Assembly (NCBI GenBank): GCA_965200155.1
Contig: CBDATR010000019.1
Location: 1 to 22,115 of the forward strand
Direction: 5' to 3'
DNA length: 22,115 nucleotides
DNA from: Nitrosopumilaceae archaeon
GTDB lineage: Archaea > Thermoproteota > Nitrososphaeria > Nitrososphaerales > Nitrosopumilaceae
Shown here piece by piece: positions 7,516 through 15,542 of the stretch. A program made the position numbers and the translations under genes. Position 1 is the first letter of the stretch; every line of letters begins with the position of its first letter. The notes beneath the pieces are model-generated. The model did not search any database and was not told the origin of the DNA. It was given only the letters and a program-made list of their open reading frames with translations.

Positions 7516-8255
7516 TGGACAAGAATCATCTCCTCCTGCTAGGTGATACAGGCACCGGTAAGACTGGCAGTCTCATATCCCTCATACACGCAGGTTACAC
7601 CCTCCGTCTCCTAGACCTCGAAAATGGCTCAAAGATCCTCCGTAATTTTATAAAGGATGAGTGCCCCGAGCGAGCTGGGCAACTGATCATTGAGAGCATG
7701 GCCCCCAAGTTCAGCATTGGTGTGGGTGGGGCCAAACCTTTGAAGGGACAGCACACACTGACGCAGATTGGGATGACGCTGGAGAAGTGGCAGAAGGAAG
7801 CCGCGCCCGATGATGTGATAGTGGTGGACAGCCTGACTGCACTAGGCAGGGCGTGCCTGATCTGGGCGAAGGCACAGAACCCAGGCCTCAAGGACAACCG
7901 AGCGCATTACATGAATGCGCAGGAGGTGGTCGAGCCATTCATCGAGGTCCTCACACATAGCGAATTCCCCTGCCACTCAATAACAATAACACACATAGAC
8001 TACCGTGAAGTATCCGAGGATACGATACGAGGCTATGCATCCAGTGTAGGCAAAGCACTGGGTGATAAGATACCTCGACATTTCAACGAGGTATTTAGGT
8101 ATGACAAGCTAGGATCTGGTAGACAGGTGAAGCATGTCATTTCTACCATTAGTGACGCTGTTACTAATGTTAAGAATTCAGCCCCTAAAAGGCTGAAGCC
8201 TAGTTACCCAATCTCTACAGGATTGGTCGACATTTTCAACACACTTAAAGGATAA
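7515..8255 (+). CDS. AAA_24/Sak4-like P-loop ATPase (putative single-strand annealing recombinase)
   Basis: Walker A GDTGTGKT, LLDLENG, Walker B IVVDSLT; sits between a nuclease and an SSB-like gene. Confidence 0.8.
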   Translation: MDKNHLLLLGDTGTGKTGSLISLIHAGYTLRLLDLENGSKILRNFIKDECPERAGQLIIESMAPKFSIGVGGAKPLKGQHTLTQIGMTLEKWQKEAAPDDVIVVDSLTALGRACLIWAKAQNPGLKDNRAHYMNAQEVVEPFIEVLTHSEFPCHSITITHIDYREVSEDTIRGYASSVGKALGDKIPRHFNEVFRYDKLGSGRQVKHVISTISDAVTNVKNSAPKRLKPSYPISTGLVDIFNTLKG

Positions 8256-8261
8256 ACATAG

Positions 8262-8759
8262 ATGGTTGGTATACTAGAAAGACTCGAAGCAAAGAAAGCA
8301 GACATCAAGCGCCCTCCACATCCTCCAGCTGGACACTATAGGTTTGTCGTATCAAGAAAACACACTACACGAGAATCACGAGATGGCGCTTGGGCCTTCC
8401 TTGAAGTCCCTTGCAAGGCACTGGCAGCACAGGTCGATGTCGATGATAGGGAGCTGGACGACTACGGGGCGAGCGTTGAGACAATCAATGTGAGGCACAC
8501 CTTCATCTTCAATCAGTCTGATGATCCAGATGCGGAAAGGAGCAATCAGCAGACGAGCTTCCAGCTTCAGAACTTCATCAACCTCCTCGGCATCGAGGCA
8601 GAGGATGATGAGTCTTTGCTGTCACAGCTCGACAGGATCGAGGGCATGGAGTTCATAGGACAGTTGACGATTGAGCCTCGTAAGGATAACCCAGAGGCTA
8701 TGAATGTACGCATCAGCCGTACGCTTTCACTCGCACAGATGGGTGAGGATATTCGCTAG
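8262..8759 (+). CDS. Putative ssDNA-binding protein (DUF669-like)
   Basis: PPAGHYRFVV N-terminal motif, acidic composition, and position after the Sak4-like ATPase. Confidence 0.6.
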   Translation: MVGILERLEAKKADIKRPPHPPAGHYRFVVSRKHTTRESRDGAWAFLEVPCKALAAQVDVDDRELDDYGASVETINVRHTFIFNQSDDPDAERSNQQTSFQLQNFINLLGIEAEDDESLLSQLDRIEGMEFIGQLTIEPRKDNPEAMNVRISRTLSLAQMGEDIR

Positions 8760-8770
8760 CCATTCAACTA

Positions 8771-8802
8771 GGAGGGAGCTTCGGCTCCCTCCCTTTCTTC
8801 TT
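8771..8802 (+). terminator. Intrinsic terminator
   Basis: GGAGGGAGC-TTCG-GCTCCCTCC (9-bp stem, cUUCGg loop) followed by CTTTCTTCTT. Confidence 0.85.
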
Positions 8803-8821
8803 GCAGATGGAGTAACTAAGA

Positions 8822-10081
8822 GTGATACCAATTGAAGAGGTGAGAGTGCTGCCAGAAAGGCAGCGTTCTGATATGGGCGACATCGAGGAGCTGGCCAAAT
8901 CCATTGCTAATGCCGGCTTGATCAATCCTATCGTAGTCGATGAGAATAATGTATTGATAGCGGGGGAACGCAGGCTGCGTGCATGCAAAGCACTCGGTAT
9001 GGATATGATCGAGACCCGCCTCCTATCTAACTTGACGGAGATTGAGAAGGAACTGATTGAGCTCGAGGAGAACGCAAAGCGTAAGAACCTGACATGGCAA
9101 GAGCATACGGATGCTGTGTATCGGTACTGCGAGATGCGTCGCAACGAGGAACCCGGCATCAGTGTCGTCGAACTCGCCCTCGAACTGGGTGTGAGTAAGT
9201 CCAAGCTAAGTGAAGACCTCAACATAGCGCAGGCGGTGAAGGATGACAACAACATCGCGGGTCTGGATAAGCGTGGATCCGCACTCAAGGCCATGGCCAA
9301 GAATAAGATGCGGGATCAGCGTGAGGCTCTCAATGCACTCGACCTATCCAGCAGTCCTGCACCGACGCAGAGTAAGGAGGTGGTTCGTGGACCCTGTGAG
9401 CTCCTCAATGAGGATTTCCTCAAGTGGATACATACCTATGAAGGCCTGCCGTTTGACTTCATCCATTGCGATTTCCCCTACGGTATCGAAATCGACAAGT
9501 CAGGCGATCAACTATCATCCGAGCACCAGTCCCAATACAGTGATAGCTTCGACATATTCACGCGGCTCATCCTCGGTCTATCAGAGGCTCGGGACATGGG
9601 TATCATAGCCCCGAACTCGCACCTGATGTTCTGGTGTGCCACCAAATACTTACAAGAAACGCGTGTGCTGCTGCAGGACGCCGGGTTCACAGTCAAACAC
9701 ACACCCCTGATCTGGCACAAGTCAGATGGCAAGGGCGTGTCACCAAACCCATACTACGATGCGCGGCATGTGTATGAGACTGCGCTCATCGCCACGGTAG
9801 GTGACCGCCACATTAGGAGAGTAGTGGACGATGTATACGCTGGCCCTGTGTCTAATAAGTGGCATCGCAATGAGAAGCCTTTCTATGTACTGATGCACTT
9901 CTTCAACATGTTTGTTAAGCGTGGCGAGACTAGGATGCTCGACCCCACCTGCGGCAGTGCATCGTCCGTCAAGGCAGCGCGTATCAACCAGTCCAAGTAT
10001 GCTCTCGGTCTCGAGATTGACCCAGCCATCTACAAAGACGCACGCCTACATCTCGGCTCCATATTGGAAAGAGGTGAATAG
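8822..10081 (+). CDS. ParB/Srx N-terminal domain fused to a beta-class N6A/N4C DNA methyltransferase
   Basis: GLINPIVV and LIAGERRLRA (ParB boxes), an HTH-like segment, catalytic-type motif DFPYG, WHK, H..EKP, and SAM motif LDPTCGSAS. Confidence 0.85.
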   Translation: MIPIEEVRVLPERQRSDMGDIEELAKSIANAGLINPIVVDENNVLIAGERRLRACKALGMDMIETRLLSNLTEIEKELIELEENAKRKNLTWQEHTDAVYRYCEMRRNEEPGISVVELALELGVSKSKLSEDLNIAQAVKDDNNIAGLDKRGSALKAMAKNKMRDQREALNALDLSSSPAPTQSKEVVRGPCELLNEDFLKWIHTYEGLPFDFIHCDFPYGIEIDKSGDQLSSEHQSQYSDSFDIFTRLILGLSEARDMGIIAPNSHLMFWCATKYLQETRVLLQDAGFTVKHTPLIWHKSDGKGVSPNPYYDARHVYETALIATVGDRHIRRVVDDVYAGPVSNKWHRNEKPFYVLMHFFNMFVKRGETRMLDPTCGSASSVKAARINQSKYALGLEIDPAIYKDARLHLGSILERGE

Positions 10082-11082
10082 TGCTGGTGGTGGGGGAGGC
10101 GTGGGGTGAGCAGGAAGAACTGCAAGGCCTGCCTTTCGTAGGTCCCAGTGGCTGGCTCCTCAAACAGGTCATGCAAAAGGTAGGCATCGCTCCACAGGAT
10201 GTCAGCCACATGACCAATGTGTTTAACCTGCGGCCTGAACGCAACAACATCGAGAGCCTTTGCGCGAGTAAAGAGGAGGGCGTCAAAGGATACGGACCGC
10301 TGGCGCCCGGCAAATATGTGCGAGCAGAATATGAGCAGGAGCTGGCAAGGCTCAAAGAGGAACTGCACGCCTACAAATCAGATCTGGTGCTGGCACTAGG
10401 TAGCACAGCATTGTGGGCATTAACGGGGAATGCAGGCATAGCGAAGAGGCGAGGCTATCTCTTCGAGACGAAGGACGGACAGAAGTGCTTGGCGACCTGG
10501 CACCCTGCCATGGTCCTGCGCAACTACAAACTCATGCCCACCTTCATGATGGACCTAGCCAAAGCGCGGCAGGAGATGGGCAGCCCTCACATCCACAAGA
10601 CAACCAGTCAGCTGTTCGTCCCGTCGCCAGATGATAGGGGTATAGAAGAGCTAATGCTATACTATTTGGTGCGCATCGCACCGGCGCCGTATGTAGTGTG
10701 CGATATCGAGACCGAGGGTGGCACCATCACAGAAATAGGCTTCGCCATCTCATCCACAGAGGCAGTGTGCATCCCATTCTTTAGGCGCCCCAACGAATCA
10801 TACTGGCCCAACGCAGGGCTCGAGGCTGAAGCATGGAGGATGGTGAAGCAGGTGTGTGAGAGCAAGAGACTGGTCGGCCAAAACTTCGCCTATGATATGA
10901 AGTATTTGTGGCAGGCGATGGGCATTGCGTGCAACAACTGGGCACACGACACAATGCTGATGCACCACACCCTCGAGCCCGAGCTTGAGAAAGGCCTCGG
11001 CTATCTCGCGAGTATGTACACCAATCGCCCTGCGTGGAAGTTCATGCGACAAGAGAGCAAGACAGATAAGAAAGGAGACTGA
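10081..11082 (+). CDS. Family-4-like uracil-DNA glycosylase domain fused to the N-terminal part of a DnaQ-like 3'-5' exonuclease (N-terminal subunit of a split PolA)
   Basis: VVGEAWG..E...G.PFVGPSG, TNV, LALG..A, WHPA..LR (UDG); CDIETE (ExoI) and GQNFAYD (ExoII). Confidence 0.88.
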   Translation: MLVVGEAWGEQEELQGLPFVGPSGWLLKQVMQKVGIAPQDVSHMTNVFNLRPERNNIESLCASKEEGVKGYGPLAPGKYVRAEYEQELARLKEELHAYKSDLVLALGSTALWALTGNAGIAKRRGYLFETKDGQKCLATWHPAMVLRNYKLMPTFMMDLAKARQEMGSPHIHKTTSQLFVPSPDDRGIEELMLYYLVRIAPAPYVVCDIETEGGTITEIGFAISSTEAVCIPFFRRPNESYWPNAGLEAEAWRMVKQVCESKRLVGQNFAYDMKYLWQAMGIACNNWAHDTMLMHHTLEPELEKGLGYLASMYTNRPAWKFMRQESKTDKKGD

Positions 11083-11546
11083 TGATGACAGTGTTGAGTG
11101 ACAGATGCCTGACACCGTATCTGGAGGATCATATGATACGCCCCGCTTACTTGGAGAAGATGAAAGCCTACGGTAAGAGCTACGGGCTGTCAAGCGCAGG
11201 GTATGACATTCGCAATGGTGAAGATACTCCCATCAGTGCGGGTGGCTTTGCATTGCTGGTGTCATGGGAGCGCTTCGTGATGCCCAATAATCTGATCGCA
11301 TTCGTGCATGACAAGTCCACATGGGCACGCCTTGGTCTCGCCCTGCAGAACACAGTGATCGAGCCAGGTTGGGAAGGATGGCTCACCCTTGAGGCGACGA
11401 ATCATAGCGAGTTGGATGTGCTGGTACACGCTGGCGAACCCATAGCGCAGATCGTGTTCCATCAACTATCATCACCTCCTCTCAACACATACACCGGCAA
11501 GTATCAGATGCAAGGACGCAAGCCTCAAAAGGCTATCTTTGAATGA
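11082..11546 (+). CDS. dcd: dCTP deaminase (trimeric dUTPase fold)
   Basis: VLSD, SYGLSSAGYDIR, KSTWARLGL, IEPGWEGWLTLE, IAQIVF, Y.GKYQ.Q; AAGGAG RBS. Confidence 0.88.
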   Translation: MMTVLSDRCLTPYLEDHMIRPAYLEKMKAYGKSYGLSSAGYDIRNGEDTPISAGGFALLVSWERFVMPNNLIAFVHDKSTWARLGLALQNTVIEPGWEGWLTLEATNHSELDVLVHAGEPIAQIVFHQLSSPPLNTYTGKYQMQGRKPQKAIFE

Positions 11547-12982
11547 CCGTCTATGATTTAACGAGGGCTGTGCCACGCAACAAGGACGAGGTTGCGTGGT
11601 TCTACAACGGCATTGACTGTCTTGTCACCTACGAGCTCTTCACTGACTTGCATGAACAGATAGAGCGTGCCCCTAGTGAGGTTGGCTGGACCTACCGATT
11701 CGCGCTGCAAAAGCAGGTGCCTATCATGGAGATGGAACTGCGAGGTGTTCGCATGTCCCCCGCCCAGGTAGCCCGGCTATTGAAGCGGCTCACCGCAGAT
11801 CACGCCAACCTACTCAGTAAATATGAGATGCTATGCGACGGCGTCTTCAACCGAAGGTTTAATTATCGGAGTCCTAAGCAAGTAAAGGAACTGTTCTACG
11901 AATACTTGGCGCTGCCAACGGTGAAGAAGCGCAATACCAAGGGTGTGTGGGCTCCTTCCGTTGACCTCGAGGCCCTCGAGAAACTAAAGCAACACTACAC
12001 AGCCATTCCCTTCGCCATCCTCATAGCGGCGATGCGAGACATCTGGAAGCAGATCGGCTTCCTCAACAAGACAACGGGAGGCGATCGTCTCTATACAAGT
12101 TTCAATGTAGCCGGTACCAACACAGGCAGGCTCGCTAGTCGAGCTTCTGATTTTGGGTCGGGGACGAACCTGCAAAACGTTGATCGAAGGTTGCGCACAT
12201 GCTTTGTAGCTGACAAGGGCCATGTGTTGGTGAATGTGGATCTTGAACAGGCTGATAGTCGTAATGTAGGAGCTAAATGTTATGAACTCTTCGTGGAAGA
12301 ATACGGCAAAGATACTGCTGGTCGATATTTGGACGCTTGTGAAAGCAGTGATCTCCACAGCTCTGTTAGTTATCTTGTTTGGCCCGATGTTACTGATGTG
12401 CTGGACACCTATTATCGTAATGAATCTTATAGACAGACGGCAAAGCGACTGGGACACGCTACTAACTACTTTGCGTCTCCTGTATCATTGGGAAAGCGAG
12501 TCAGCATACCAACGCAGATTGTCAAGAACTTCCAAAGACTCTACTTCCAAAGCTTCCCCTGCATCAAGATGTGGCACCAGTGGGTCGCCACACAAATGAA
12601 CGATTACCCCGCTACACTCACCACCTTGTATGGCAGACGGCGAAGGTTCTGGGGACGCAGCAAAGAGGATGCGACGCTTCGTGAGATGCTAGCCTACGAA
12701 CCACAAAGCATGACAGGACATCAGATCGATGCAGCGCTGGAGGCAGTATGGCGTACCTACCCTAGCGTCCAACTGCTGGTGCAGGTACATGATAGCATCC
12801 TATTCCAACTACCAATCAAACACGAACATCTCATCCCCAAGATTAAACAGACCATGACCGACGCATATACTCTCGTATTGAAGGGTGACAGGGAATTCTA
12901 TGTTCCTGTCGAAGCTAAGACAGGAAGCAACTGGGGTGATTATGACGAAGAGCACAACCCAACCGGGCTCCAAAAAGTATGA
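11543..12982 (+). CDS. Family A DNA polymerase (ExoIII helix plus polymerase domain)
   Basis: YNGID, ME.RGV, FNYRSPKQV..L, TGRLAS, NLQNV, motif A DLEQADSR, motif B RQTAKRLGHATNY, motif C VHDS. Confidence 0.95.
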   Translation: MTVYDLTRAVPRNKDEVAWFYNGIDCLVTYELFTDLHEQIERAPSEVGWTYRFALQKQVPIMEMELRGVRMSPAQVARLLKRLTADHANLLSKYEMLCDGVFNRRFNYRSPKQVKELFYEYLALPTVKKRNTKGVWAPSVDLEALEKLKQHYTAIPFAILIAAMRDIWKQIGFLNKTTGGDRLYTSFNVAGTNTGRLASRASDFGSGTNLQNVDRRLRTCFVADKGHVLVNVDLEQADSRNVGAKCYELFVEEYGKDTAGRYLDACESSDLHSSVSYLVWPDVTDVLDTYYRNESYRQTAKRLGHATNYFASPVSLGKRVSIPTQIVKNFQRLYFQSFPCIKMWHQWVATQMNDYPATLTTLYGRRRRFWGRSKEDATLREMLAYEPQSMTGHQIDAALEAVWRTYPSVQLLVQVHDSILFQLPIKHEHLIPKIKQTMTDAYTLVLKGDREFYVPVEAKTGSNWGDYDEEHNPTGLQKV

Positions 12983-14153
12983 ACGGGACTTCGGGGACTG
13001 GGTTGATGCATTCATAGAAGCCACCAACCAGACCACTGCACCCCAGTGCTTCCGGCTATGGGGTGCCATCAGCTGCATCGCTGGAGTGCTGGAGCGCAAG
13101 GTCCATGTGCACACCCTCGGTTCAAACCTATACCCAAATCTCTATGTCATACTGTGTGCGAGACCTGGGGTGGGTAAGACAGAGGTGACGGACAGGGTGC
13201 GCCAAGCGTGGACTTCGGTCGATGGGCTGCACATAGCTTCGGCGAACATGTCCCGCGCATCTCTTACGGACAGCTTGCAGGACGCCAAAGTCGTGTCGGG
13301 CGCGTATGAATACAACGCGCTGCTCGCCTCGGTTAACGAGCTAGGTGTCCTGCTGCCATCCTACGACCTCGAGTTCATGTCTCATCTAACCGATTTGTAT
13401 GACTGCAAGGTGTACACTGAGAGGAAGCGCGGCGGTGGTCTGAAGATTAACATCCCAAATCCATACCTGAACATGCTATGCGGCACACAGCCCGGCTTCC
13501 TACACTCGCTGTTACCTGAAGTGGCATGGGAACAGGGCTTCATGTCCCGGTGCATACTCGTATACAGTGGTGAGAAGATCCAACAGGACTTGTTTACAGT
13601 CTCCAACCTAAACCTTGAACGGCTGTACAAAGATCTGAAGCTCATTAACAACATGTCAGGGAGATTTAAATGGGCTGATGATGCCAAGGATTACATCAAC
13701 AGGTGGCACCTGTCGGGAGGTGAGCCGCGCCCCTCTCATCCCAAGCTTAGTAACTACAACGAGCGTCGCACCGCGCATGTGCTGAAGCTGTGTCAGGTGG
13801 CTAGTGCTAGCCAAGGCGGTTCGATGCTGATCGAGGAAGCGCATGTGAAAAGGTCGGTGCGCTGGTTGACTGAGGCCGAGGCGAATATGGAGGACATCTT
13901 TAAGACGATGTCTTCAGGTGGTGACAGCGCCACCATTAGTGAAGCATTTCACTATCTGTGGACTACATTCGTACGCGAGGGTAAACGAGGCGTTGCTGCA
14001 TCCAGGCTAAATGCGTTCTTGATGGATAGGACTGATGCGTACAAAGTGAGACATGTCATTGAAATAATGGAGCGATCTGGTATGATTAAGACCACAGTTA
14101 TTGAGGGTAAGACAGCCTACATTCCACAAGCCAAGGGAGGTGAGAAGAGATGA
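12942..14153 (+). CDS. DUF3987-like P-loop ATPase, putative replicative helicase (start uncertain)
   Basis: W.AIS.IAG.L.RKV, YPNLYVIL, Walker A RPGVGKT, NELG, LTDLYD, R..G, NML.GTQP, GFMSR; no primase domain. Confidence 0.75.
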   Translation: MTKSTTQPGSKKYERDFGDWVDAFIEATNQTTAPQCFRLWGAISCIAGVLERKVHVHTLGSNLYPNLYVILCARPGVGKTEVTDRVRQAWTSVDGLHIASANMSRASLTDSLQDAKVVSGAYEYNALLASVNELGVLLPSYDLEFMSHLTDLYDCKVYTERKRGGGLKINIPNPYLNMLCGTQPGFLHSLLPEVAWEQGFMSRCILVYSGEKIQQDLFTVSNLNLERLYKDLKLINNMSGRFKWADDAKDYINRWHLSGGEPRPSHPKLSNYNERRTAHVLKLCQVASASQGGSMLIEEAHVKRSVRWLTEAEANMEDIFKTMSSGGDSATISEAFHYLWTTFVREGKRGVAASRLNAFLMDRTDAYKVRHVIEIMERSGMIKTTVIEGKTAYIPQAKGGEKR

Positions 14154-14578
14154 GATACATCTCTAATAATGTGCAGAATGGCTGGATGCTTAGACGCGGT
14201 CTGCGTGGCCGATGGTTGACTGTGTACCTGCACCACTACCCAGCAGGGTGCAGTGAGAAGACTGAGCGGATGCACAACCACCCATGGAAGTACAGCATTA
14301 GTCTGTTGTTGAAAGGAAGGATGACTGAACAAATCTTCAGTCGGACAAGACGCCGATTAGGCCCCAGCCTTAGGTTCTACACTCACGATACACATCATAG
14401 GGTTGTGTCTGGTTTAGGCTGGAGCCTATTTATCGGCATCGCGCGAATGCAGCATCGGAACCCTAGCTTCACATGCCGGGTGCCGGAAGGTTACGCGCAT
14501 TACACCGAGCTGACTCCTGAGGAAGTGGGATACAGGTTTGATGTAACCTCGTCCATAAAACGGACAGGGTTACGCTAG
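14150..14578 (+). CDS. Cupin-fold protein with a His cluster
   Basis: VYLHHY, MHNHPW...SLLLKG..TE, THHRV, WSLFI; ATGA overlap with the previous gene. Confidence 0.65.
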   Translation: MRYISNNVQNGWMLRRGLRGRWLTVYLHHYPAGCSEKTERMHNHPWKYSISLLLKGRMTEQIFSRTRRRLGPSLRFYTHDTHHRVVSGLGWSLFIGIARMQHRNPSFTCRVPEGYAHYTELTPEEVGYRFDVTSSIKRTGLR

Positions 14579-15021
14579 CGCTGCCACAATTCACATTCAG
14601 CCTGACGCCTCCTAACCAGTCCGGGCAGTTTCATACCACGGGCGTACACCCATCGCATTAATTGAGTAGGCGCCGCGTCGTATTCCTGACGGTTTACGAC
14701 GCGGCGTAGCGTTGAGACCTGTAAGTTACCACTGCCACAGTTGAAACAGAAGTCTATTAACGCTGCTTCTTGTCCCGCTGTCAAGGGCACATTGATGAGT
14801 CGTGCCACGGCACCCACTGCCGTCATCATATCATCCTCGAGCAAGCTATGTGCTGCATCTATACTAATCGACTGCCATTGAGCGAGGGGAATGTGAGTAT
14901 TACGTGAGAGCAGGTGCCCATACCCGATGGTAGGATACCCCACCGGATCCCTGTAGGGGTCCAAGCTTAACCCTTCAAACTCCTTGGCACATTCCGCAGC
15001 CAGCCGCAAGGCCTCGCTCAT
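14575..15021 (-). CDS. Endolysin, GH24 phage lysozyme
   Basis: FEG...PYRD..G.PTIGYGH (E-x8-D-x5-T), AL..F.FN.G, STL.R, RWVY, GLVRRR..E. Confidence 0.96.
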   Translation of the reverse strand: MSEALRLAAECAKEFEGLSLDPYRDPVGYPTIGYGHLLSRNTHIPLAQWQSISIDAAHSLLEDDMMTAVGAVARLINVPLTAGQEAALIDFCFNCGSGNLQVSTLRRVVNRQEYDAAPTQLMRWVYARGMKLPGLVRRRQAECELWQR

Positions 15022-15542
15022 TTTTCCATGACCCGGCGCCTCGTGCGATCGCCAAACCAGAACGCTACGATCAGCAGCATCAGCTCTTGGTCAAAGTCGG
15101 TGAACGCGAGCGGGTGTGACAAGGTAAGAACGAGGTCTTGTTTTTGCTCATAGATGAATAGCAGCGAGGCGAGCTTGACGCTGCCCCATACTCCGAAGAT
15201 GAAGTAGCTGACTGTTGGACGTACGGAGCTGATGAACCAGTCCAGCGCACTGAACATAATAAAAGCGATACTAAATATCCAACCATTAATCAGACCCTCG
15301 TTATGCTGTGCCGCATTCAGGATTTGTACACCGTAAGACTGATGGGGCTTGCGTGCAGCAATCTGACTTTGCAACGCCGCCTGCTCATGTATCAAATCCA
15401 TGCGCCAATCATGCTCTTGAGCAGCATGATTAAGGCGCAGCTTCATCATCTGTAATTCCTGCTTATGATCCACCCACCCCTTGCCCATACCTATAAGGTC
15501 GGGCAGGAAGGGAGCGAGGAAACCCAGGGCTGCGGCTATCAT
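15018..15542 (-). CDS. Putative holin (3-TM, GTA-holin-like)
   Basis: SVRP motif, hydrophobic segments, C-terminal FWFG.R and a basic tail; directly upstream of the endolysin. Confidence 0.7.
   Translation of the reverse strand: MIAAALGFLAPFLPDLIGMGKGWVDHKQELQMMKLRLNHAAQEHDWRMDLIHEQAALQSQIAARKPHQSYGVQILNAAQHNEGLINGWIFSIAFIMFSALDWFISSVRPTVSYFIFGVWGSVKLASLLFIYEQKQDLVLTLSHPLAFTDFDQELMLLIVAFWFGDRTRRRVMEK

Follow-up and report, generated by a model that had tools for sequence, protein, structure and literature searches.

Results

Organisation of the polymerase locus

In the window, meaning the whole 22,115-nucleotide stretch of DNA that was analysed, a phage DNA polymerase is divided within its proofreading site and encoded as two separate proteins, and a dCTP deaminase gene lies inside the cut. 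Polymerase chain 1 (the N gene; 333 aa, GTG start) occupies positions 10081..11082 of the forward strand, on which all features described below lie, and was assigned through Pfam, PHROG, hhalign and NCBIfam. It is followed by dcd (11082..11546, 154 aa; NCBIfam, Pfam and PHROG) and by polymerase chain 2 (pol; 11543..12982, 479 aa), identified through Pfam, hhalign and an AlphaFold2 model. The upstream gene of the module (8822..10081) combines a ParB-N domain with a DNA methylase in one protein (Pfam ParB_N, E 1.1e-09; N6_N4_Mtase, E 1.5e-04, a match below the family cut-off; PHROG ParB-like and methyltransferase families), and its TAG stop codon overlaps the GTG start of chain 1 in the sequence TAGTG. 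The downstream gene (12885..14153, start uncertain between GTG 12885 and ATG 12942) encodes a DUF3987 primase/helicase-type protein (Pfam DUF3987, E 1.1e-14; phrog_14296 DNA primase, E 6.8e-39), which likewise lies 3' of the polymerase in Caulobacter phage Kuura, a Vibrio phage and Microcystis phage Mel-JY34.

The N gene, dcd and pol each use a different reading frame and are joined by overlapping codons: the TGA of the N gene (11080-11082) overlaps the ATG of dcd (11082-11084) in TGATG, and the TGA of dcd (11544-11546) overlaps the ATG of pol (11543-11545) in ATGA. An SD-like AAGGAG (11072..11077) sits within the last codons of chain 1 (K-G-D), 4 nt before the dcd ATG; an SD-like core was present in the final 18 nt of the N gene at 52/82 loci, as against 14% of control windows from the same genes. 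Promoter-like and terminator-like sites in 8000-15200 did not exceed the shuffled expectation (6 vs 6.3 and 4 vs 5.3, respectively). The coordinates that an initial annotation had given for the ORFs, motifs and overlaps all hold on re-examination.

The gene in the break encodes an intact short-form dCTP deaminase, with 99.1 bits against the TIGR02274 equivalog (cut-off 92.8; NCBIfam), E 3.7e-20 against Pfam DCD and E 1.1e-42 against phrog_1663. Among solved structures, it matches the dCTP deaminases 3km3 and 4dhk (E ~1e-15) as well as 8y1w and 9ln0, which are 155-156 aa long. Among the surveyed loci, dcd occupies the break only in the window.

Exonuclease motifs are distributed over two chains

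Chain 1 begins with a UDG-like domain of family-4 type (residues 2-151, nt 10084-10533; Pfam UDG, E 1.8e-16). Alignment of profile A3 to T. maritima UDG 1l9g/1vk2, together with alignment A1, places a variant motif A, G-E-A-W-G, at 10093..10107 and motif B, H141-P142-A143, at 10501-10509. The canonical motif A of family 4 UDGs is GE[AG]PG; the motif-B histidine is absent in 4/30 aligned N chains. ExoI and ExoII lie in the exonuclease core (residues 196-328, nt 10666-11064), which matches Pfam DNA_pol_A_exo1 at 27.3 bits (cut-off 23.6), and since this match covers only profile positions 14-141 of 173, the final part of the exonuclease profile is absent from chain 1. By hhalign, ExoI D208-I-E210 (10702..10710) corresponds to D355 and E357 of E. 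coli Pol I, and ExoII Q267-N-F-A-Y-D272 (10879..10896) to Q419-N-L-K-Y-D424. D208 and E210 are invariant in two alignments (49/49 and 30/30 N chains), and Q267, N268, Y271 and D272 in 49/49. The chain reads ...PAWKFMRQESKTDKKGD at its C-terminus, with a conserved tail of the form ...WKFMR...KKGD, and in 120/120 best homologues the C-terminus falls within 0-6 residues of the end of the profile match.

Chain 2 consists of the ExoIII helix (residues ~14-42) and, C-terminal to it, the thumb, palm and fingers. Its ExoIII motif, Y21-N-G-I-D25 (11603..11617), aligns with Y497...D501 of Pol I (hhalign), and Y21, N22 and D25 are invariant in 49/49 pol chains. The chain matches Pfam DNA_pol_A (E 5e-33, 115 bits) and residues 491-926 of Pol I (hhalign probability 99.8). 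In its AlphaFold2 model (pLDDT 91), residues 14-42 are predicted to form one helix and residues 1-13 to be disordered, and positions 10-477 superpose on 485-928 of Klenow 1kfs_A with Z 30.5 and rmsd 3.8 over 409 aligned residues (VIA-align). The polymerase motifs were located by hhalign: the invariant motif A aspartate D233 (12239..12241; Pol I D705), motif B R297...K301...H305...Y309 (12431..12469; Pol I R754, K758, F762 and Y766) and the invariant motif C H416-D417 (12788..12793; Pol I H881-D882). Within motif B, every aligned pol chain has R297, K301 and H305, and at least 90% have Y309; the position of Pol I F762 is an invariant histidine in the split pol chains.

Placed on single-chain families, the two proteins adjoin: chain 1 covers positions 483-789 and chain 2 positions 806-1238 of phrog_17, and 318-440 and 454-887, respectively, of NCBIfam PRK05755. 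In a homologue from Vibrio phage PVS_29 that is contiguous across the cut, N residues 1-315 align with 16-336 and pol residues 20-215 with 365-565. In Pol I numbering, D355, E357 and D424 are thus on chain 1 and Y497 and D501 on chain 2 (hhalign); because the cut falls between ExoII and ExoIII, the exonuclease site is divided over two chains. Profiles and the Pol I alignment agree here with the initial description of a family A polymerase divided through its proofreading site. Judged on the aligned sequences, the conservation of the exonuclease residues in 49/49 sequences per half is beyond chance.

The break in strains, reads and selection

A second contig of the same assembly (C30), 96% identical in DNA, has the same three genes of 333, 154 and 479 aa with identical junctions, and a DNA contig from run X1 spans both the N/dcd and the dcd/pol junction. 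Between the window and the C30 copy, dN/dS was 0.15 for N and 0.06 for dcd, values based on 17 and 6 differences respectively, and 0.04 for pol. Contigs from RNA libraries, which may contain DNA, run uninterrupted across N/dcd (X8, 11020-11272) and dcd/pol (X7, 11382-11649); the RNA evidence consists of these contigs. Splice-type joints were absent from four runs (two RNA-library and two other), and an Rfam search of the window returned no match, and no intron. Nor were split-intein halves found at the cut among the 120 best homologues and the fused relatives: since chain 1 ends 0-6 residues past the profile (120/120) and the fused relatives are colinear and carry nothing additional, a split intein, which would take up 100 + 35 residues, has no space. 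The comparative data support the break as a genuine and old gene fission.

Relatives share the cut around a variable slot

A survey of fused against split homologues, which the initial annotation had suggested, found the same cut point, order and orientation in 97/97 related loci showing both halves, with none fused; 18 fused forms, found by length, lie outside this group. The sources included a set of 82 (the window, locus L005 and 80 IMG/VR loci), in which the IMG/VR loci were the 80 top-ranking among 513 matches to a profile made from split forms. With such a profile, fused forms would come further down the list, and the count of zero fused therefore holds for the split clade, not for all UDG-PolAs. 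Both halves lay within the fetched stretch in 76/82 sources, again with none fused; in L016, 5,081 nt separate the N gene from the pol half downstream, and in the remaining 5 the contig ends within ~640 nt after it. Species genomes yielded both halves in 20/22 loci, none of them fused. The best 150 representatives at 50% identity were all 254-407 aa long (150th, E 7.6e-102). The same two-gene cut is present in one cultured Caulobacter phage and in uncultured relatives that form a very large group.

In a quick tree of 84 rows, for which every second of the best 120 rows was taken, 61 split rows fall on one side of a branch with SH-aLRT 84, which supports a probable single origin of the cut. Fused relatives keep the order methylase, polymerase, DUF3987.

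The gap between the halves holds 0 to ~5.1 kb of variable genes; the halves abut directly or overlap in 18/76 loci, and other genes intervene in 58/76. An NDT-like gene occupies the slot at 28/82 loci and occurs nowhere else in those loci; other contents are MazG-type pyrophosphatases, HNH endonucleases (2/35 loci examined, L018 and L030) and unknown ORFs. The recurrence of NDT-like and MazG-type genes bears out the earlier suggestion that the break is a slot for nucleotide-metabolism genes.

The survey also turned up contiguous intein-like inserts of ~290 aa in the pol genes of six relatives, and a locus in a 4.7-Mb contig (L105) where both halves are fragmented by frame changes.

Discussion

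The two chains are likely to be one enzyme, with a proofreading site built from both, that originated in one ancient fission. As the carboxylates are divided over two chains and all are invariant, the simplest interpretation is a composite site that forms when the chains assemble. Of the heterodimer put forward in the initial annotation, the division and invariance of the carboxylates stand as observations, and from them we infer the assembly of the chains. The ancestor would have been a single-chain phage replicase with a UDG-like domain, a 3'-5' exonuclease and a family A polymerase, in which a single ancient cut separated the ExoII part of the exonuclease domain from the ExoIII helix, within the loop that connects them. 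Chain 1 would then supply the UDG-like domain together with the core of the exonuclease and its ExoI and ExoII carboxylates, while chain 2 would start with the ExoIII helix (Tyr, Asp) and continue into the polymerase. This helix most likely docks onto the chain 1 core, and the composite proofreading site would be active once the chains are assembled. The cut has turned into an intergenic junction where small genes are gained and lost. The N gene, dcd and pol are probably carried on one message and translationally coupled, as suggested by the overlapping stop and start codons and the ribosome-binding site in the last codons of chain 1; the case for strict coupling is less obvious where genes separate the two halves (58/76 loci, with a distance of up to 5.1 kb, reached in L016).

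It is unlikely that chain 2 is a proofreading-less polymerase working alone and chain 1 an independent protein, whether UDG-like, DNA-binding or the remnant of a nuclease, with merely structural Exo motifs. Most relatives do carry other genes between the halves, up to 5.1 kb, the loss of the motif-B histidine in 4/30 N chains implies that not every chain 1 activity is kept everywhere, and the published account of PolAs includes members with dead or absent exonucleases, APEX and CCPol (PMC10201439). However, four carboxylates and a tyrosine invariant in 49/49 are more than structural helices need, the order and orientation of the halves are constant at 97/97 loci, and the exonuclease domain is reportedly required for PolA stability (PMC10201439). 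A regulatory split, in which the proportion of the two chains varies in infection so as to switch proofreading and uracil handling, would make fidelity tunable by stoichiometry, an idea raised in the initial annotation; the design permits it, with ExoIII on the polymerase chain and ExoI/II on the other, and Czernecki et al. suggest differential regulation as possible for the T7-like split (PMC10201439). We regard it as distinctly improbable here and find no support for tunable fidelity: the TGATG/ATGA overlaps and the abutting or overlapping halves (18/76) point to fixed co-production, which the SD-like core in the N-gene tail (52/82) also favours, and promoter- and terminator-like sites across 8000-15200 stay within shuffled expectation.

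Restoration of one polypeptide, whether by RNA splicing of an intron containing dcd, by ribosomal bypass or frameshift, or by split-intein trans-splicing, has a very small probability. The dcd gene is intact, with its own SD and start and under purifying selection, the slot varies between 0 and 5.1 kb and its contents are unrelated, each of the three genes uses its own frame, the window lacks an Rfam intron match, and the joints are absent from two RNA-library and two other runs. These observations outweigh the fact that introns, inteins and homing endonucleases invade such genes, the ~290 aa intein-like inserts of six relatives, the HNH genes that L018 and L030 have in the slot, and the precedent of phage 'fractured genes' with split inteins (PMC2677866). 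An artefact of sequencing or assembly, or a gene recently broken into a pseudogene, is what the halves of L105, both in pieces through frame changes, would bring to mind; for the split itself this explanation is refuted, in line with the initial view that it was not a simple frameshift artefact, by the second strain copy with identical junctions, by contigs from other studies' runs, by a cut common to 97 loci and by invariant catalytic residues.

For the single composite enzyme favoured here, the closest published case is the split exo/pol PolA of the T7-like cyanophage S-SBP1 (Czernecki et al. 2023, NAR; PMC10201439), whose two chains superpose, as an AlphaFold2 complex, on a single-chain relative. 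As in the window, PolA has become two adjacent genes via fission, proofreading first and synthesis second, and the chains are expected to re-associate without covalent joining. In translation, however, the first S-SBP1 chain, gp15 (171 aa), holds ExoI FDLES, ExoII HNIIGYD and ExoIII YCIQD, so that its cut follows a complete exonuclease site. The window, unlike S-SBP1, has a UDG-like domain on the first chain. The S-SBP1 genes share a 40-nt overlap, leaving no room for other genes, in contrast to the variable slot of 0 to 5.1 kb in the split clade. Split PolAs are already known, and the cut between ExoII and ExoIII differs in position from the published one.

Single-chain UDG-PolAs are described for N4-like cluster #17, SPO1/SP-10/SP-15 and YerA41/phiLo (PMC10201439; PMC13697223); the SPO1-type precedent invoked in the initial annotation is in print (PMC10201439), and the word 'split' is absent from PMC13697223. 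Fused relatives found here include Microcystis phage Mel-JY34 and MW202489. Single-chain forms share with the window the order of family-4-type UDG, exonuclease and PolA, a methylase upstream and DUF3987 downstream, at 24-39% identity to chain 1, but are one polypeptide of ~780-870 aa rather than two, and UDG motif A is GEAPG in the eight fused forms examined but GEAWG in the split clade. Caulobacter phage Kuura (OQ067476) belongs to the same family, has the same cut and falls on the split side of the tree branch. Its order is Kuura_029 (369 aa, UDG + ExoI/II), two small ORFs, Kuura_026, a polymerase starting 22 residues before YNGLD, and DUF3987; it differs from the window in sequence (34% identity) and in a slot with two ORFs lacking family matches instead of dcd. 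Since the Kuura N chain is annotated as 'hypothetical protein' and the paper, in its accessible part, names just 'a DNA polymerase' (PMC9959647), the split appears to have passed unremarked there.

Essential enzymes cut in a critical region, with the pieces kept in place and order around a foreign gene, are also known from Aeromonas phage Aeh1 nrdA (mobE) and the T4-related PolB genes 43A/43B (PMC2988022). Their pieces reassemble into active enzyme, the split T4-type gp43 chains being reported to co-purify and be active and the split NrdA to be functional; these are other enzyme families with a homing endonuclease insert, whereas the insert of the window is dcd. Fractured genes with split inteins, mainly from phages, likewise keep both halves at their original locus in unchanged orientation, separated by a free-standing gene, according to Dassa et al. 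2009 (PMC2677866), but the cut in the window has no flanking intein halves, and protein splicing is therefore not expected. At the level of single residues, the position of Pol I F762 is His in the window lineage and, as given for the T7-like cluster in PMC10201439, Tyr in the latter.

Results

Two genes on either side of dcd encode the parts of a probable two-chain polymerase

The window is the entire contig C19, one of 51 contigs in the assembly, and represents a phage fragment. Its plus strand carries a replication module consisting of genes for a helicase, an exonuclease, a Sak4-like annealing protein, a ParB-methylase, the trio described here and a DUF3987 primase-type protein; the minus strand encodes an endolysin and internal virion proteins, and no tRNAs were found in the window. 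The trio is made up of an N-terminal chain (chain 1; 10081-11082, plus strand, 333 aa, GTG start), a dCTP deaminase gene, dcd (11082-11546, plus strand, 154 aa), and a polymerase chain (chain 2; 11543-12982, plus strand, 479 aa). The three genes lie in three different frames and are joined by TGATG (11080-11084) and ATGA (11543-11546) overlaps, and the stop of the ParB-methylase gene overlaps the start of chain 1 in the same manner (TAGTG). The latter gene, directly upstream at 8822-10081, fuses a ParB N-terminal domain to an N6/N4 DNA methylase (methylase match below the Pfam cut-off), and a small gene 3' of the primase gene (14150-14578) hits a cupin-like PHROG family labelled cysteine dioxygenase (E 8.4e-10). 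The sole blastn match of the window to the phage collection was ~100 nt long and fell within dcd.

Chain 1 combines a uracil-DNA glycosylase (UDG)-like domain with an exonuclease core. Residues 2-151 match the Pfam UDG superfamily model (60.9 bits against a cut-off of 24.3), the only such model to pass: the curated family 4 model, NCBIfam TIGR00758, scores 73.4 bits, below its cut-off of 125.3. Family 4 enzymes carry GE[AG]PG (motif A) and HP[SA] (motif B); those in the window read GEAWG and H141-P-A, and the motif B His is missing in 4 of 30 aligned relatives. The first 38 residues of the solved T. maritima UDG have no equivalent in chain 1. At motif A (window 10093-10107) the split clade has GEAWG, whereas fused, single-chain UDG-exo-PolA relatives keep GEAPG; an invariant P300-E301...K304 stretch is likewise present in split-clade chain 1 and absent from fused forms. 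Both features may be adaptations to a two-chain state.

Chain 2 belongs to the family A DNA polymerases, scoring 115 bits with Pfam PF00476 (cut-off 34.3). Family profiles of both chains were aligned by hhalign to the E. coli polA sequence, which served as the Pol I reference; the roles of the aligned residues in the exonuclease and polymerase sites are those given in the literature. Residues D233, R297, K301, Y309 and H416-D417 of chain 2 align with Pol I D705, R754, K758, Y766 and H881-D882, the motif A Asp, the motif B R/K/Y and the motif C HD. Across the aligned polymerase chains these residues do not vary, apart from Y309, which at least 90% of the chains retain. Modelled with AlphaFold2 (pLDDT 91), chain 2 has a Klenow-type fold, aligning with 1kfs_A residues ~485-928 (VIA-align; Z 30.5, rmsd 3.8, 409 aligned residues), and a Foldseek search of the model against the PDB returned nothing beyond what the sequence alignments gave. 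Within motif B, His305 (window 12455-12457), invariant in 49 of 49 polymerase chains, occupies the position of Pol I Phe762, the "B3" residue of dideoxynucleotide discrimination. Those fused relatives whose sequences were read likewise have His there. The consulted part of PMC10201439 mentions only Tyr, Phe and Leu at B3.

The proofreading motifs are divided between the two chains and invariant

Chain 1 matches the DEDDy 3'-5' exonuclease family (PF01612) at 27.3 bits against a cut-off of 23.6, covering profile positions 14-141 of 173 only. Its ExoI residues D208/E210 align with Pol I D355/E357 and its ExoII residues N268/D272 with N420/D424, the ExoII stretch Q267-N-F-A-Y-D272 corresponding to Q419-N-L-K-Y-D424. 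The ExoIII motif YxxxD resides on chain 2, where Y21/D25 align with Pol I Y497/D501. No single polypeptide holds all three motifs, as ExoII and ExoIII are separated by a stop codon, the 154 codons of dcd and another start codon; the coordinates and the mapping to Pol I thus confirm the observation of the initial annotation that a PolA is split through its proofreading site around an intact dcd.

The two chains match adjoining stretches of single-chain profiles (phrog_17 positions 483-789 and 806-1238; NCBIfam Pol I 318-440 and 454-887). In Vibrio phage VS-ABTNL-3 protein PVS_29, which is contiguous at this point, chain 1 residues 1-315 correspond to 16-336 and chain 2 residues 20-215 to 365-565. 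Because residues 1-13 of the chain 2 model are disordered, residues 14-42 form one long helix and the Klenow alignment starts from ~485, the cut is placed in the stretch before the ExoIII helix, which is, as modelled, the sole piece of the exonuclease domain remaining on the polymerase chain. Across 49 paired loci D208, E210, N268, Y271 and D272 of chain 1 and Y21, N22 and D25 of chain 2 are all invariant, so selection continues to act on the site in either chain.

The split is shared by a large clade of phages

A second contig of the same assembly, C30, is 96% identical to the window over 14.7 kb and carries the same genes of 333, 154 and 479 aa with identical junction sequences. Comparison of the two gave dN/dS values of 0.15, 0.06 and 0.04 for the N, dcd and polymerase genes, from 17, 6 and 86 differences, respectively. 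Both junctions are spanned by one DNA contig from sequencing run X1, and the first also by contigs from run X4. The split is old and not the product of a sequencing or assembly error. Identity between the window and C30 drops to 89-96% inside the polymerase domain (11700-12900), against 98-99% on either side, and dS is 0.27 for the polymerase gene against 0.05 for N and dcd; this lower identity together with the higher dS suggests a recombined patch.

Among 427 relatives of chain 1 retrieved by a word-indexed protein search, the best 120 are 251-378 aa long. An exhaustive profile search found 3,209 representatives at E <=1e-30, and the best 150 of these (the 150th at E 7.6e-102) are all 254-407 aa long, with the match reaching the C-terminus. 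We assembled a locus set of 82 sources, comprising the window, locus L005 and the best 80 of 513 viral relatives. Both halves were seen in 76 of the 82 and none was fused at this point; in the species genomes there were 22 matches, all in metagenome-assembled genomes of many phyla, with both halves present in 20 and again none fused, figures that describe this clade only, since the loci were found with profiles from split forms. L016 at first appeared to be an N chain without a polymerase, but its whole record has the polymerase half 5,081 nt downstream; the remaining five contigs stop shortly downstream of the N gene. A single related locus, L105:3893-7645, lies in a chromosome-sized contig (4.7 Mb, Actinomycetota), and its halves are broken by frame changes into 3 and 2 pieces, reflecting either a decaying prophage or long-read errors.

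Sixteen of 50,697 phage records match chain 1 at E <=1e-8. They include the cultured Caulobacter phage Kuura (OQ067476), which has this cut, and Vibrio phage VS-ABTNL-3, which has a second one; of the other 14, the two inspected, Microcystis phage Mel-JY34 and MW202489, encode single-chain enzymes with the same neighbour genes. A tree of the N region, for which alternate proteins of the best 120 were sampled, has 84 rows, of which 61 are split forms, 18 are fused forms and 5 have the second cut. The split rows all fall to one side of a branch supported at SH-aLRT 84, a topology consistent with a single fission origin of the split clade.

The break is occupied by a changing set of genes

Of 76 loci, 18 have a gap of less than 40 nt between the chain 1 stop and the chain 2 start-equivalent, mostly with ATGA-type overlaps, and the other 58 have one of 69-1,743 nt. 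In L016 the gap reaches 5.1 kb, and two large ORFs without a Pfam match (723 and 789 aa; L016:6204-10717) lie within it. We scanned 58 inserted ORFs from 35 loci, leaving out ORFs of <60 aa, the near-duplicates L046-L048, L054 and L081, and minus-strand ORFs except two of the longest (L006, L023). A nucleoside 2-deoxyribosyltransferase-like (NDT-like) gene (phrog_355; DUF1937, DUF7768, DUF4406) was found at 20 of the 35 loci, MazG-type or PRA-PH pyrophosphatases at four and an HNH endonuclease at two (L018, L030); most other ORFs had no family match. An NDT-like profile built from these ORFs and run against every ORF of >=60 aa in the 82 sources, both strands included, recovered 28 genes. Each of them sits between the halves, and the flanks (<=5 kb per side) contain no further copy. 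This count includes two genes flagged "other" solely because of an over-extended ORF start and two more that follow the N gene on contigs ending before the polymerase half.

The occupant in the window passes the NCBIfam TIGR02274 equivalog for dCTP deaminase (99.1 against 92.8 bits) and Pfam DCD (73 bits; cut-off 27), and matches solved dCTP deaminases, among them forms of 155-156 aa. Both monofunctional (dUTP-producing) and bifunctional dcd-dut (dUMP-producing) solved enzymes are matched, and dUTPase models give sub-threshold matches. In cultured phages the nearest relatives of this dcd, at 45-51% identity, are in roseobacter phages and others with ~75 kb genomes. A phmmer search with this dcd over 81 viral and 22 genome loci (plus strand only, E 1e-5) found no counterpart; dcd is one rare slot occupant, found in the window only among the loci surveyed. 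The earlier suggestion that the split point is a slot for nucleotide-metabolism genes is borne out by the NDT-like genes and MazG-type pyrophosphatases of the relatives.

Polymerase genes of this type are interrupted at other places as well. Six relatives have in-frame inserts of ~285-295 aa, at LGHG|(S/T)NY in four (after LGHG in L088:5399-7747, L097, L099 and L020) and at GTG|TNLQN in two (after FGTG in L107:5504-7993 and L061). These begin with Cys and end with ...TGN followed by Ser/Thr, as inteins do; no intein family in Pfam matched the ~290-aa inserts. A second, independent cut of UDG-PolA, directly behind the NLQN box and ahead of motif A, is found in L002:1909-5040 (Vibrio phage VS-ABTNL-3) and in proteins P0128, P0129, P0130 and P0137; in the Vibrio phage the gap holds a 184-aa ORF of no known family, and the N-region tree requires at least two origins for this cut. 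UDG-PolA-type polymerase genes are, judging by the intein-like inserts, the second cut and the HNH genes in two slots, frequent targets of mobile elements.

Possible translational signals in the cassette, and no excess of internal promoter-like or terminator-like sites

An AAGGAG sequence lies within the last chain 1 codons (K-K-G-D), 4 nt before the dcd start. In 52 of 82 loci the final 18 nt of the N gene contain a Shine-Dalgarno-like core, compared with 14% of control windows. This enrichment is suggestive only, because the conserved amino acids of the tail would on their own favour codons of this kind. Promoter-like or terminator-like sites inside the cassette did not exceed shuffled expectation, and a terminator-like site with a 9-bp stem lies at 8771-8792, ahead of the ParB-methylase gene. 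RNA-library contigs run colinearly through the N/dcd junction (run X8, 11020-11272) and the dcd/pol junction (run X7, 11382-11649). The contigs over this stretch are few and short (X7, n=14; X8, n=4), and the evidence is weak, since the records are contigs only and come from libraries that may hold DNA.

Discussion

Family A polymerases are the classic example of polymerisation and proofreading in one chain, and in the one published natural split that proofreading site stays intact. In the present case a very large, almost wholly uncultured phage clade, comprising at least 150 protein clusters at 50% identity, has the five proofreading residues divided over two proteins, all of them invariant. 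These sequences are best explained by a two-chain polymerase in which both chains contribute to one proofreading site and a gene slot marks the break, a reading that we judge highly probable. The enzyme is read as a two-chain complex with a composite site mainly because a dead exonuclease would not be expected to keep all of its Exo residues.

Several more familiar arrangements were weighed against this composite two-chain enzyme. The T7-like cyanophage S-SBP1 also has a PolA split into exonuclease and polymerase chains, but its exonuclease chain gp15 (MT424636) carries ExoI, ExoII and ExoIII, so that its cut, at the exo/pol domain boundary, spares the active site; with ExoIII on chain 2, the polymerase of the window is not of that type. 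A fractured gene rejoined through a split intein is at odds with chain 1 ending 0-6 residues past the profile in 120 of the 120 best homologues and with fused relatives being colinear across the cut. For a group I or II intron around dcd, Rfam at gathering thresholds gave no matches in the window, and no splice-type joints across the cassette were seen in the covered parts of four runs. The parts consulted of two earlier reports document insertion of an endonuclease gene as a route to genes-in-pieces (PMC2988022; PMC2677866), and by analogy the ExoII/ExoIII cut may have arisen in this way; as a description of the window itself it fails, since the cut there holds dcd and not an endonuclease gene, with HNH genes confined to two of the 35 loci surveyed. 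Whatever opened the break, the slot shows a fission point turning into a site of gene turnover.

A more elaborate proposal, which we regard as rather improbable, would make the cut a functional feature instead of a neutral scar, its slot being reserved for enzymes that adjust or sanitise the dNTP pool, such as dCTP deaminase in the window and an NDT-like protein or a MazG-type pyrophosphatase in relatives; these would be co-translated with the polymerase chains and perhaps dock to them; separately or additionally, chain 2 alone would act as a polymerase devoid of proofreading and the UDG-like domain, fidelity and uracil handling being set by the chain ratio. That fidelity is tunable by chain ratio, as also proposed in the initial annotation, is speculation. 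Either version would entail a natural DEDD exonuclease with an active site existing only at a protein-protein interface. If the two chains of the composite enzyme assemble as inferred, they would be nature's own experiment in assembling a metal-ion active site from the two sides of an interface, as well as a ready-made two-part PolA for enzyme engineering. The finding is directly testable because Caulobacter phage Kuura, with its N chain Kuura_029 and polymerase Kuura_026, is in culture.

Single-chain UDG-PolAs were described by Czernecki et al. (PMC10201439), who also report the split PolA of S-SBP1, and structures of the fused form were solved by Missoury et al. 2026 (PMC13697223), as far as the consulted parts of these reports go; the word "split" is absent from the latter. 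Passages of two other works (10.1101/325100; PMC10580990) mention split phage DNA polymerases in passing, and the portion seen of the Kuura paper (PMC9959647) names only "a DNA polymerase". Searches of the openly accessible literature turned up no account of a PolA severed between ExoII and ExoIII, although the supplements of PMC10201439 and PMC9959647 may list such genes. Current annotations label the N chain "hypothetical" or "uracil-DNA glycosylase", and the polymerase chain looks exonuclease-deficient; consequently, surveys that use PolA as a marker will misread phages of the split clade.

Three contigs of the assembly, namely the window (C19), C30 and C37, the last 95% identical over 5.1 kb, are strain variants of one phage, with a G+C content of 51% against 46.6% for the whole assembly. 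Given the endolysin and the bacterial-type ribosome-binding sites of this phage, it may have been mis-binned in the archaeal assembly.
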